Program-made: the position numbers
Part shown: piece by piece, positions 1 to 3,000 of the stretch
Layout: the number at the start of each line of letters is the position of its first letter
Position numbering within the stretch: the first letter of the stretch is position 1
From: a virus
Lineage: Duplodnaviria > Heunggongvirae > Uroviricota > Caudoviricetes
Direction: 5' to 3' (one strand)
IMG/VR virus record: IMGVR_UViG_2531839200_000012
Coordinates: 1-5,984 of that record
DNA: 5,984 bases

Positions 1-3000
1 CAGTGACGGATACCCACCAATTTCCAGTGCCACAGTAACAGTAATCTTATCCGGGTAATTATTTATCCCTTTAACAACCAGTTCGTATTTTTTCTTCATC
101 ACTTTACTCTCCCCGCGCCGCCTTACGCCGGTCTTCTTTAATCTTGAAATACAGGTTCGTCAGATATGTCAGCAGCCCAAACAGCAGACTCCCCAGCACG
201 CCTATCGCCACCCACTGGGACGGAGAGACTTTGTCCAGCAGCTGCAGTAACCAGTATCCCGTCCCCACCGCTGACGTGGTGTATGACACACCCGTTGTGA
301 TTTTTTCCATCTGGTACATACCCCGTCTCCCGCAATCCGGAAGCTCACAACAACAGGAGGGGCATCAGCTCACACCGACAGCCCCTGCGTATGGTTACAT
401 CATCATTTCGCCGCCAGGCTGAGGCTCACTGCTACCGTCAGGCTGAGACACAACGCCATCTGAAACAGCACTGTCACCCGCGCCGTCTTCAGGCTCAGGA
501 GCAGCCGGTCCCCCCAGCAGCTCATCCAGAATGGCATCCACTTCAGCATCAAGACGCGCCTCAAGATTCTGGCGGAGTTGCTGTTTCAGTGCGCTTCTGA
601 CTTCTTCAGAGCGCAGGACGTCCTTCACTGCTTCAGCAGTGACCAGAGATTTTATTTCTGACATGGGATTTTCTCGTTGAAAGGTGTTGTTAAGAAAGTT
701 GCTACGAAATGAGAGGCTCTTCGGGTTTTGTTCCGGCTGACTGGCTGGCGCTGATTTTTTCCGCCGCCGCGGCATCAATCTTTTTGCGTATATAGTTCCG
801 GATAACCTTATACCCGCCACTTACCAGATATAACGTGCACACCACCGTGCAGAAATACAATAAAATAAGCTGTACAAATCTCATTATCCCTCCCGGTTAT
901 TGATATGGTGTTGACATCGTTAATACCTGTTGGTTAAAAAAGTGTCCTGCATGTTTTGCTTTGGATATAACGACATTTGCCGCCGGTTCTGGCTCCTTGT
1001 TTTCCCTGCCCCGGCGGCCTTTTTTTCCTGCTTACGGGTTATTCACTTCCACTGTTATACTTTCAATCAGCACCGGATATGTCGCACCGCTAGTGATATC
1101 GGTCACGCGCAATTTGTCTGCCGTAAACGTGCCGACCGGTGACTGTGACAGCATGAACGGCGTCCCGTCCTTACCATCAATGACCGGCGTCACCTCAATA
1201 CTGTTGTTACCGGCAAAACGGAAGCCCAGCGTATGCCATTCGTTATCAAATGCGCCGAATGACCCCAGCTTCGTGTTCTGACCAGCATTTCCCTTGTGGT
1301 ACATCACATTAAGGTCTGTGGCATCGCTCTGTACGTAAAACGACGCCAGCAGGTTATGACCGGCATTACCTTCCAGTGTGACGCCCTGAGGCAGTGAAGA
1401 AACCGGCCAGTACAGCGCCAGTGCGTACTGATTAGCTGTCAGTGTGCCATCAACTTTAAAACGACAACTGATAAGCCCGCCCTTCTCCAGCAGGTCTGCG
1501 CCATTACCGGCATCATGCTGCATAAACCACGAGGAACTTCCTGTCTGTTTGGTCCACCTCAGCGCCTTACCTCCTGCAGCACCTGCATCATCAACTACCA
1601 ATGCACGCCCTCCTTCAGCTCCCCATCCCTGCGGATTCAGTAAACCACCTGACTCTGTTGCACGGTAATAAAGCAGCGTTGTCACTGATTTCCCGTCCGT
1701 TGACGGTGTTGATGGTGTGTCCGGTGACGGCTTCTCATCCGGCGGCATCACAACCTGTTCCCCACCCACCAGTTCAGCCGTCCGTCCTGCATGGAGAAGA
1801 ATCGCTGAGGCAAGACGGTCAGAAATAATCCCCCTGCGTGCCCATGAGCTGAAATGGCTCGCACGGTCTGCTGACGTCCAGTTTGCCGACGTCCGGGAGG
1901 CCGCACCGTAATATCCTGATGCCGGAATATCCGGGTCTTCTTCCGGTTTGTTCGTCGGGACATTTGCTCCGTTCTCATCGGTCATGAACGGCACAAAGTG
2001 AATATTCTTTTCCGTTTTGTTTTTGTAACTGCCGTACACCGTCTGGTAAGTGGATTCGCTCTTCTGCTTCCAGAAATAAGTTGTGTCTCCACATATCCAG
2101 GGAACACCGTCAGCAGAACCACCAGCGCACTGTCCCACCATATCTGCAAGGTCCGTACGATATTGTTCCACTACTTCTGTAAAACGGGCTGTGTGATTTG
2201 CTGGCGTTCCGTCAAAGTCAAATTCCCCCTGCATCCACACCACGGCAAGCAGCACATTTTTCGGGTTCTTTGCCAGCGCGGCTTTTGTACGACCGATGAG
2301 ATCCTTATACAGCGGCCTGCCCACACCCCAGCGGGTAGAACTCTCTGAGGCACCGGTCACGTCACTGTATGTTCCATCTGCCCCGGTGGTGAAAGCTGAA
2401 CCACCACGGCAGCACGGAACCAGAAGAATACCCGCATTCGCCGGTATAAACGGCAGCAGCTTTTTGGCAATATGCAGCCCCTGCCCCACGGTTCCGTACT
2501 GACCTTTCGACAGGTCAGCTTTCGGATGGTTAAGACGGCTCATGTCCTGTACATCATGCAGACAGTGGTCTGCCGGAATAATGTCGTTATATTTACAGGG
2601 AGCGCCATCCGGCGTCACTGTGCTGCGACGAGCCAGTTGCTTTATACGCGGGTCAGGACGGTCATATGTCTGCGGCAGAGGAAGCCCCTCACCGTAAGCC
2701 ATGCCGTTCGACTGCCCGGCCAGTGGAATAACGTAGTAATAATCTGGCTCCGTGGTGACCACTCCCGGATAGCCACCATCCCCCGTGCCGGGCACAACCA
2801 CTGGCGTGGTCACATCCCCCTCCGCGGCAATCGCCTGCATCAGGGTATAAGGGGTTATGGCCACAGGACTACCAAACGGCTGCCAGCCCTCTTTCAGTTT
2901 GTGTGTCAGCTTTTCCGCAAGATCTGACGGCGACGCCGCCCTGACAACATCATAATGTTTAAATGTCATTATTCCTCCCCTTTCCGGGATTTTCCTCAAC

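Follow-up and report, generated by a model that had tools for sequence, protein, structure and literature searches.

A nanS-p sialate O-acetylesterase gene downstream of stx1 is probably a conserved lambdoid phage late gene, possibly with a place on the capsid

The window, by which we mean the whole stretch of 5,984 nucleotides analysed here, shows a lambdoid late-region gene order: Q, a pR'/tR'-like site, stx1AB, sRNAs and terminators, nanS-p, DUF1378, DUF826 and holin. In 100+ related loci nanS-p likewise follows Q/pR' (and stx, if there is one) and precedes the holin. All of the protein-coding genes lie on the minus strand. The antiterminator gene Q (5200..5634, 144 aa) was taken from the ORF list and from the homologous gene annotated as Q in BP-4795, to which this segment is 100% identical. 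Just after Q, promoter and terminator scans of the sequence placed a late-promoter-like site at 5212-5185 and a tR'-like terminator at 5154-5135 (5135..5212 together, minus strand), the equivalents of which are annotated in phi24B. The toxin genes stx1A (3746..4693) and stx1B (3467..3736) come from the ORF list, supported for stx1B by the annotation of homologous loci and for stx1A by the exact protein, which is called with the Pfam RIP domain in many E. coli assemblies. The notion that Thr45 of mature StxA marks Shigella dysenteriae was dropped, as about 14,000 index blocks from E. coli assemblies contain the exact StxA. Downstream of nanS-p, the genes for DUF1378 (702-884), DUF826 (395-664) and a class II holin (104-319) together span 104..884, as given by the ORF list, PHROGs and the annotation of an identical locus. 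A tRNA scan of the window returned none.

The nanS-p coding sequence occupies 1032..2969 on the minus strand and encodes 645 aa plus stop according to the ORF list and translation. A ribosome-binding site GGAGG, read from the sequence at 2974..2978, lies 4 nt 5' of the ATG at 2969; a longer TTG start at 3026 is used by no homologue, nor by the RefSeq annotation. The protein matches the RefSeq CDS WP_000143000.1 ('SASA family carbohydrate esterase') at 100% identity, and the exact 645-aa protein is present on 287 E. coli contigs. The Pfam matches to DUF6645 (E 7e-71), DUF1737 (E 1.8e-15) and SASA (E 5e-11) all exceed the curated cut-offs, and with such E-values the family match lies far beyond chance. 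The NCBIfam search of the protein gave no match. The interdomain linkers are rich in Pro, Ser, Thr and Gly, and the N-terminus shows no signal peptide-like sequence. Judged from the sequence, the ORF is a real gene, already known as NanS-p and already annotated, and represents no new kind of system.

The NanS-like SGNH type II esterase core comprises aa 73-391 (1797..2753, minus strand). Superposition at the sequence level on E. coli NanS (PDB 3PT5) gave an E-value of 2.5e-119 between residues 73-391 of the query and 16-331 of the chain, and the Pfam SASA model scored 43.1 bits against a cut-off of 24.8. In this alignment Gln86, Ser87 (codon 2709-2711, minus strand) and His372 (codon 1854-1856, minus strand) are aligned with Gln18, Ser19 and His301 of NanS, and they are invariant across 30 relatives in an alignment that is shallow, with all members at >= 76% identity. 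We take positions 29-30 of the 3PT5 chain to be Gln18 and Ser19, and position 312, in an SSHF block, to be His301. Gln86 and Ser87 are likewise invariant in 9 alleles. The GQSN block occupies residues 85-88, and His372 falls in a RASH block at residues 369-372, the RASH/RSSH motif being described for this esterase family (PMC10462455). In NanS the catalytic dyad is Ser19/His301, Gln18 serves in the oxyanion hole and a catalytic Asp is lacking (PMC9063846). The original prediction, which named a 645-aa protein with a GQSN block as a NanS-p-type esterase, is thus borne out in its main points: the minus-strand frame is intact and preceded by GGAGG, the best homologues are the sialate O-acetylesterases NanS and NanS-p, and the serine of the GQSN block is the conserved counterpart of the catalytic Ser19. 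Its expectation of a Ser/His/Asp triad was wrong, since the NanS family works with a Ser/His dyad.

The C-terminal lectin-like domain (aa 429-645, DUF6645; 1035..1685, minus strand) is a putative carbohydrate-binding module. The solved NanS-p C-terminal domain 6YP6 matches residues 429-644 with an E-value of 1e-96, and Pfam places DUF6645 at residues 494-611. The proposed binding residues Tyr515, Tyr520, Tyr545 and Phe615 (residue list from PMC10462455) are kept in the alignment of relatives, and the sugar-binding residues are also conserved with phi24B. An AlphaFold2 model of the full protein built on the 30-sequence alignment reached a mean pLDDT of only 41.8 and was set aside, so shallow an alignment being insufficient for it.

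Alleles shown to act on Neu5,9Ac2 and mucin share about 87% identity with the catalytic core, and all 7 alleles of EDL933 as well as the 5 alleles of O104:H4 tested are active esterases (PMC8065619). From these residues and identities we predict with high confidence that the window allele is an active sialate O-acetylesterase. An inactive relic, either a pseudo-enzyme or a decaying prophage gene, would fit the many defective prophages in genomes that carry nanS-p loci and the shortened copies at loci L006 (390 aa) and L081 (405 aa). However, the frame in the window is intact and of full length, the catalytic, SGNH-block and binding residues are all kept, the ribosome-binding site is strong and the identical protein recurs on all those contigs, which makes a relic extremely improbable. 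Taking the explanation as a whole, the gene very likely encodes a sialate 9-O-acetylesterase of the NanS-p family in a lambdoid prophage.

The esterase gene had been described as lying directly behind stx1B on the same late transcript. It is indeed the next protein-coding gene on the same strand, but a gap of 497 nt (2970-3466) with two sRNAs and two terminator-like hairpins separates the two. An STnc100-family sRNA (3175..3388, minus strand) matches Rfam RF02076 over its full length, scoring 190.7 bits where the gathering score is 47, and its 3' end forms a hairpin at 3206-3185 followed by a U-run (-13.6 kcal/mol, z -3.8). Antisense to the late transcript, an AgvB-type anti-sRNA (3114..3173, plus strand) matches RF02702 marginally, its 56.6 bits lying just above the gathering score of 56; the AsxR model scored 46.8 bits on the same region, under its own gathering score of 63. 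Convergent sRNAs at the position between stx and nanS-p have been described (PMC4104026). The terminator scan placed a second terminator-like hairpin with a U-run at 3067..3090 (minus strand, -19.5 kcal/mol), 98 nt upstream of the nanS-p ATG. In addition, a Fur-box-like site at 4803..4821, with 3 mismatches to the 19-bp consensus and 0 such sites expected by chance, marks the region of stx1's own iron-regulated promoter.

With terminators and sRNA genes in between and a separate Fur-box promoter for stx1, co-transcription would require Q-antiterminated read-through from pR'. A Q-dependent co-transcription of stx1 and nanS-p is likely. Co-induction with stx has been reported for other alleles (PMC8065619, PMC10462455): norfloxacin induces nanS-p along with stx (PMC8065619), and nanS-p expression rises by 1-2.4 log under mitomycin C (PMC10462455).

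Comparison of the window with related prophages revealed two different parents. Positions 3201-5984 are 100% identical to BP-4795-type stx1 prophages, and positions 1-3200 match an O157:H7 prophage that lacks stx, again at 100% identity. Sliding identity and a three-way alignment place the switch of parent within a stretch of about 87 bp that is identical in both (3112..3198). Strain PV15-279, in which the exact allele of the esterase occurs alongside an stx1 prophage, was rejected as the source of the window because its stx1 side carries a different Q region. By the identities to the two parents the window is a mosaic, the product either of a rare recombination or of a chimeric assembly.

A chimera, in which short reads of a multi-prophage strain were joined at a conserved intergenic repeat and this allele would lie behind stx1 in no real genome, would explain why the identity is complete to a different parent on either side and why the switch falls inside the common stretch. 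Searches of IMG/VR, of the GTDB representative genomes and of the JGI metagenomes did not return the 141-nt junction, and no complete E. coli genome (n=5,426) or INPHARED phage is >93% identical over 2900-3500; across these collections, queried with the whole window as well as with the junction, no record contains the junction. No stx was found in the contexts of the exact protein that were read (24 of 286 index blocks), and in length the window resembles the short prophage contigs that are frequent in draft assemblies. On the other side, lambdoid prophages residing in one cell commonly undergo homologous recombination at exactly this kind of conserved segment, as has been discussed for the nanS-p locus (bioRxiv 10.64898/2026.05.13.724894), and the contexts read are a small part of the index blocks with the exact protein. 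We regard a chimera as a serious possibility, at somewhat less than an even chance. In genuine stx1 prophages a different nanS-p allele fills this position, so that the biology does not depend on which of the two holds.

The esterase had also been called cargo. Prophages that lack stx carry the identical nanS-p gene in the same slot, and nanS-p occurs at this site together with stx1, with stx2 or with neither. The GC content of the stx genes is 0.39-0.45 and that of nanS-p 0.51-0.57, like the neighbouring phage genes, which makes stx rather than the esterase the compositional outlier. Variable presence at an insertion site and deviant base composition are the traits of a moron, and nanS-p displays neither. 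In agreement with this, Tree et al. (2014) described stx as a moron and the ORF at the nanS-p position as a conserved phage ORF (PMC4104026). Further evidence came from the protein's N-terminal domain.

This DUF1737 domain (aa 1-54; 2808..2969, minus strand; Pfam PF08410, placed at residues 3-50) is a putative capsid-anchoring module. The phi24B homologue gp84 is an abundant capsid decoration protein of the virion, with DUF1737 hexamers at the hexon centres, according to a cryo-EM preprint that locates it on the capsid faces and not on the tail (bioRxiv 10.64898/2026.04.10.717836). The phi24B-type DUF1737, which binds hexon centres, has a Tyr 'tooth' in its anchor loop. The window DUF1737 is 59% identical to that of gp84, with a loop shorter by 3 residues (I38-T-P-Y41-T-L-M), and the aligner put no window residue opposite phi24B Tyr42; the loop nevertheless contains Tyr41, and a Tyr is found there in 23 of 30 relatives. 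An exhaustive search with DUF1737 yielded 71 matches, a few of them distant and in other architectures. With this domain alone, a word-indexed homologue search found only truncated E. coli fragments, and a PDB sequence search found only chance matches to allophycocyanin, the phi24B capsid entries being absent from the PDB copy searched.

The DUF1737 loop type covaries with the type of the head module. The adjusted mutual information (AMI) is 0.75 and the rule is followed in 41 of 43-44 de-duplicated loci, a small sample made up mostly of E. coli isolate prophages and containing three exceptions. After collapse to 18 unique combinations the permutation p is still about 2e-4. The upstream flanks, the esterase core, the C-terminal domain, the lysis genes and the intervening DNA all give an AMI <= 0.28. 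About 5 kb of such uncoupled DNA separates DUF1737 from the head module, and simple physical linkage was rejected as the cause of the coupling because the intervening and upstream DNA is associated with neither. The coupling is consistent with a role in capsid decoration. The head genes themselves lie outside the window.

The window variant of DUF1737 pairs with two head modules, types C and D, neither being the phi24B type, and the capsid proteins of these modules fall into two Pfam families without relationship to each other, lambda gpE and HK97-type. Even the 100% identical window protein occurs with both, and the pairing of one variant with two unrelated families speaks against close co-adaptation with one particular capsid protein. 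Weighing the analogy with phi24B against these points, we put the attachment of the window allele to a capsid at about even odds. A broader model, which we hold more tentatively, is that DUF1737 acts as a portable capsid-docking adaptor in head-type-specific variants, displaying NanS-p on virions of at least four unrelated lambdoid head architectures, including HK97-like and lambda-like ones. If so, NanS-p would be a virion-displayed enzyme and not a conversion gene, and Stx phages would generally carry a mucus-modifying enzyme on the capsid.

In the standard view of the literature, NanS-p enables lysogens to use Neu5,9Ac2 for growth and removes O-acetyl groups from mucin glycans (PMC8065619, PMC10462455). 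Pure cargo, in the sense of a moron or lysogenic-conversion gene, would be a soluble esterase that is freed at lysis, serves host nutrition only and plays no part in the virion, with DUF1737 contributing, for example, to folding or solubility. PHROGs lists the NanS-p family as 'unknown function' and not as structural, and the gene is lost or shortened in some prophages (L008, L006). The pairing of one DUF1737 variant with two unrelated capsid-protein families would also agree with it. However, the phi24B homologue is abundant in virions and its DUF1737 has been resolved there on the capsid, the coupling of DUF1737 type and head module spans DNA that is itself uncoupled, and the gene keeps its position and its phage-like GC content with or without stx. 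We therefore consider pure cargo unlikely. The cargo label is probably wrong in view of the identical slot without stx, the deviant GC of stx, the description by Tree et al. and the phi24B virion homologue together with the covariation. The preferred reading is that nanS-p is probably a conserved phage late gene whose product may sit on the virus shell, and that it is the upstream toxin genes that look like inserted cargo.

A virion-borne esterase might instead act on bacterial surface glycans, de-O-acetylating O-antigen or capsule and so aiding adsorption rather than acting on host mucin. A review of STEC phages raised this possibility by analogy with the esterase tailspikes of G7C and Vi phages (PMC8065619), and a weak PHROGs match links the protein to the tail-protein family phrog_25867 (E 2.8e-5). 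But the core closely resembles alleles active on Neu5,9Ac2 and mucin, the phi24B protein is on the capsid faces and not on the tail, and the putative ligand-binding residues of the C-terminal domain are the same as in phi24B. Action on surface glycans is accordingly quite improbable.

Based on the preferred reading, a conserved late gene with a possible place on the capsid, we propose the following mechanism. NanS-p consists of three modules: DUF1737, a NanS-like SGNH esterase (Ser87/His372 dyad, Gln86 in the oxyanion hole) and a lectin-like, putatively sugar-binding C-terminal domain. Its gene, placed within the late operon after pR'/Q and before the holin gene, would be expressed when Q-modified RNA polymerase passes the terminators after induction. 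The late-operon position and the N-terminus devoid of a signal peptide-like sequence suggest expression after prophage induction and exit of the protein from the cell at lysis. Outside the cell, the enzyme would remove O-acetyl groups from mucin sialic acids, so that sialidases and surviving E. coli could make use of them. Judging from phi24B gp84, DUF1737 would probably dock the esterase on capsid hexons, so that virions carry the enzyme. In this scheme nanS-p would be a conserved late and structural phage gene, and stx an insert placed upstream of it.

The nanS-p gene as such is textbook biology of EHEC prophages, and any wider significance would lie in the reframing. If NanS-p is capsid-anchored in most lambdoid prophages, Stx particles would bring a mucin-sialate esterase along, which would bear on the movement and persistence of Stx phages in gut mucus and on the spread of toxin genes, and the field's label of 'metabolic cargo' would be incomplete. 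The coupling of DUF1737 to the head module lends independent support from sequence comparison to the phi24B cryo-EM claim, and points to BP-4795, which has an HK97-like head.

Among known systems, the NanS-p proteins of EHEC (933W z1466/L0105 and the other alleles of EDL933 and O104:H4) share the DUF1737-SASA-DUF6645 layout of about 645 aa (PMC10462455), the position between stx (or pR') and holin, and the Gln/Ser/His residues and SGNH blocks including RASH. Compared with them, the core of the window allele is about 87% identical, the linkers only 6-50% and the C-terminal domain about 70%. The window allele is seen elsewhere only in prophages without stx, among the 24 of 286 index blocks read. 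The phi24B protein gp84 (vb_24B_21; C-terminal domain PDB 6YP6) shares 73.5% overall identity and all domains with the window protein, the catalytic and the sugar-binding residues are the same in both, and its DUF1737 residues 1-33 are nearly identical to those of the window. The capsid-contact loop differs, being STAGYGAEF in phi24B and ITPYTLM, shorter by 3 residues, in the window. The SSP motifs of phi24B, whose role as self-processing sites is itself only a proposal, are absent from the window protein, which has different linkers of similar Pro/Ser/Thr/Gly richness. The phi24B head is a T=9 head of Phage_capsid_3, whereas the window DUF1737 type pairs with lambda-like or HK97-like heads. 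Chromosomal NanS (YjhS, 3PT5) is homologous to the core over its full length and shares the Ser/His dyad and the oxyanion Gln (PMC9063846), but with about 330 aa it lacks DUF1737 and the lectin-like domain and belongs to the sialic-acid regulon rather than to a late operon (PMC10462455, PMC8065619). If capsid attachment holds, NanS-p would resemble T4 Hoc, a comparison drawn in the phi24B preprint: both would be non-essential proteins at hexon centres that turn a glycan-interacting domain toward mucus. Hoc differs in having Ig-like domains, binding as a monomer and lacking enzyme activity, and with no sequence relationship between the two the likeness would be one of working only.

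The minus strand of the window reads as a lambdoid late region, based on the ORF list, PHROGs and the annotation of homologous loci. Along this strand, NinH (5627-5821), antiterminator Q (5200-5634), stx1A (3746-4693) and stx1B (3467-3736) are followed by the nanS-p ORF (1032-2969), and downstream of it by DUF1378 (702-884), DUF826 (395-664) and a class II holin (104-319). Translation of the nanS-p ORF from the ATG at 2969, which has a GGAGG site 4 nt upstream as read from the sequence, yields 645 residues with GQSN at positions 85-88, in agreement with the original prediction. 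The TTG at 3026 offers an open longer start, used by none of the homologues and by no RefSeq annotation. The interval between the esterase gene and the holin (320-1031) gave no Rfam match; a 2026 preprint places the PasA/PasC sRNA genes in this interval of Stx1 phages (10.64898/2026.05.13.724894).

The protein contains three Pfam domains, all over the curated cut-offs: DUF1737 at residues 3-50 (E 1.8e-15), the esterase core SASA at residues 83-275 (E 5e-11) and DUF6645 at residues 494-611 (E 7e-71). A search against solved structures matched residues 73-391 to E. coli NanS/YjhS (3PT5, E 2.5e-119) and residues 429-644 to the NanS-p C-terminal domain (6YP6, E 1e-96). NanS belongs to the SGNH type II esterases, with a Ser19/His301 dyad and Gln18 in the oxyanion hole (PMC9063846, citing Rangarajan 2011). 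In the HMMER alignment, Gln18, Ser19 and His301 correspond to Gln86, Ser87 and His372, which together with the QGE and RASH blocks show no variation across nine alleles from the fetched loci and 30 database relatives. The Ser/His/Asp set envisaged at first thus holds for Ser87 and His372 and falls for the catalytic Asp, of which NanS has none (PMC9063846). In addition, the counterparts of the four sugar-binding residues proposed for the phi24B C-terminal domain (Y510, Y515, Y540 and F611; PMC10462455), namely Y515, Y520, Y545 and F615, are conserved. The structural matches, the three domains and the conserved Gln, Ser and His bear out the family assignment, and at the sequence level membership in the NanS-p esterase family is secure. 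The nanS-p of the window is a gene already known, and it had been rightly identified: at the DNA level it matches a RefSeq CDS labelled 'SASA family carbohydrate esterase' with 100% identity, the exact protein is present on 287 E. coli contigs, and the best 120 of 1,579 relatives all come from E. coli or Shigella and share the same three domains. The other NanS-p alleles tested, seven from EDL933 and five from O104:H4, all proved active on Neu5,9Ac2 and mucin glycans (PMC8065619).

The esterase gene was described as lying directly behind stx1B. It is indeed the next coding gene, but 497 nt (2970-3466) separate the two, and the gap is occupied by sRNAs and hairpins. A full-length STnc100-family sRNA lies on the coding strand at 3175-3388 (Rfam 190.7 bits, gathering score 47), its 3' end formed by a terminator-like hairpin with a U-run at 3206-3185 (-13.6 kcal/mol, z -3.8). 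On the plus strand, antisense to the late transcript, a marginal match to an AgvB-type anti-sRNA was found at 3114-3173 (56.6 bits, gathering score 56), where the AsxR model stays under its Rfam threshold. A second terminator-like hairpin with a U-run follows on the coding strand at 3090-3067 (-19.5 kcal/mol). Positions 4803-4821, upstream of stx1A, match a Fur box with 3 mismatches, where chance predicts 0 such matches; this is consistent with an iron-regulated stx1 promoter independent of pR'. Just after Q, as annotated for pR' and tR' of phi24B, the minus strand carries a promoter-like site at 5212-5185 and a terminator at 5154-5135. Between tR' and stx1A, the minus strand has a further T-run hairpin (4920-4948, GCCAGCC...GGCTGGCTTTTTT), possibly a second terminator ahead of stx1AB; the terminator scan did not call it, perhaps owing to its 9-nt loop. 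From established lambdoid biology, stx1-promoter transcripts should end ahead of the esterase gene, and read-through to nanS-p should be confined to Q-modified polymerase from pR'. Therefore, the proposed sharing of one late transcript by stx1 and nanS-p is plausible only under prophage induction. Norfloxacin co-induces the 933W nanS-p allele with stx2 (PMC8065619), and mitomycin C raises expression of other alleles by 1-2.4 log (PMC10462455).

The same gap holds the junction of a clean two-parent mosaic. BP-4795-type stx1 prophages match positions 3201-5984 with 100% identity, and an O157:H7 prophage without stx matches positions 1-3200, likewise with 100% identity; the crossover falls on the AgvB-like element, within about 87 bp that do not differ between the parents (3112-3198). 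Among the five public collections searched, the junction was not found in IMG/VR, GTDB representatives or JGI metagenomes, and no complete E. coli genome or INPHARED phage matched 2900-3500 at more than 93% identity. The mosaic reflects either an uncommon recombination event in nature or chimeric assembly of short reads. Genuine stx1 prophages hold a nanS-p allele at the same position, and therefore the functional reading is unaffected by the mosaic origin.

Four lines of evidence argue against the label of "cargo" that the original prediction had given to the gene. First, an identical nanS-p occupies the same slot in stx-less prophages, where a Q-like gene, a DNA methyltransferase and tRNA genes precede it. 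Second, the GC content of stx1 is 0.39-0.45 versus 0.51-0.57 for nanS-p, which resembles its neighbours. Third, the homologue gp84 of phi24B, 73.5% identical to the window protein, is reported to rank with the virion's most abundant proteins. Its DUF1737 was resolved as a hexamer plugging the T=9 capsid at its central hexons, with a Tyr42 'tooth', and gp84 has its full length while virions are fresh and undergoes processing during storage (2026 preprint, bioRxiv 10.64898/2026.04.10.717836). The fourth line is covariation with the phage head. The esterase gene is missing from some stx1 prophages, as in locus L008, where Rz1 and terminase come almost straight after stx1B, and is cut to 390 aa in L006; it is therefore dispensable for prophage maintenance.

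For the covariation test, 140 loci around protein relatives (L001-L140; 106 once duplicates were collapsed) were taken from IMG/VR and other sources, and the downstream head-morphogenesis module was classed by reference-free clustering of large ORFs. Four modules, each with a different capsid-protein family, lie about 4-10 kb downstream of nanS-p: A, of 933W/phi24B type, with Phage_capsid_3; B, with GpA terminase and a ClpP + Phage_capsid_4 fusion; C, lambda-like gpA/gpB/gpC with gpD and a gpE-type capsid protein; and D, with TerL and an S78 + HK97-type Phage_capsid fusion. Discrete variants of the DUF1737 loop exist, and they track the head module in 41 of the 44 loci whose head could be classed. 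The phi24B-type loop STAGYGAEF goes with A (nine loci, and one with D), SSYTDDGAALIQ / TSYDDNGMKF with B (ten, and one with A), and the window-type ITPYTLMQ with C (13) and D (nine), and once with B. DUF1737 type and head class (A, B, C+D) share an adjusted mutual information (AMI) of 0.75 over the 43 head-classified loci with a protein of >600 aa, a small sample mainly of E. coli isolate prophages; a first set of 36 loci, reduced to 18 unique domain/head combinations, gave 0.54 (permutation p about 2e-4). The esterase core and C-terminal domain do not exceed an AMI of 0.11. Values for the next 3.2 kb on the downstream side, where DUF1378, holin, lysozyme and Rz lie, stay within 0.23, and those for four flanks reaching up to 5 kb upstream stay within 0.28 with DUF1737 and within 0.20 with head type. 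The coupling therefore jumps about 5 kb in which the DNA reassorts freely, as predicted by a physical DUF1737-head interaction and not by plain linkage. Heads C and D have unrelated capsid-protein families, and their common pairing with the window-type DUF1737 is unexplained by any co-adaptation model offered; a 100% identical NanS-p even occurs with an HK97-type head (S78 + Phage_capsid; L092/L093) and a lambda-type one (Nu1/gpA/gpW/portal; L094).

Elsewhere, DUF1737 is found alone, in tandem in small proteins, or with SASA and without the C-terminal domain, which fits, and does not prove, a portable module. Four database proteins of 110-135 aa (P0281, P0287, P0291 and P0292) each hold two tandem copies. 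We regard capsid attachment of the window allele as evenly balanced, because the sample is small with exceptions, its DUF1737 type pairs with two heads, its anchor loop falls three residues short of the phi24B one, the protein has none of the SSP motifs put forward as processing sites, a sequence search of a PDB copy found no solved DUF1737, and the AF2 model of the protein (pLDDT 41.8) is too low for use. A role of DUF1737 variants as capsid adaptors, each specific to a head type, is proposed more tentatively, with the balance slightly against it; if true, NanS-p would be a virion-displayed enzyme across lambdoid phages.

We propose that the esterase, late-expressed and lacking a secretion signal, would be made by Q-dependent read-through upon prophage induction and released by lysis. 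The Ser87/His372 dyad would then de-O-acetylate mucin sialic acids, with the C-terminal domain targeting the enzyme to glycans and DUF1737 probably, if not demonstrably, carrying it on capsids. In known phages, nanS-p is located after stx1a, 1c, 2a, 2b, 2c and 2d, and not after 2e, 2f or 2g (PMC10462455). For the gap between stx1B and nanS-p, Tree et al. 2014 described exactly the arrangement set out above, with stx as a moron and the nanS-p ORF as the conserved phage gene (PMC4104026).
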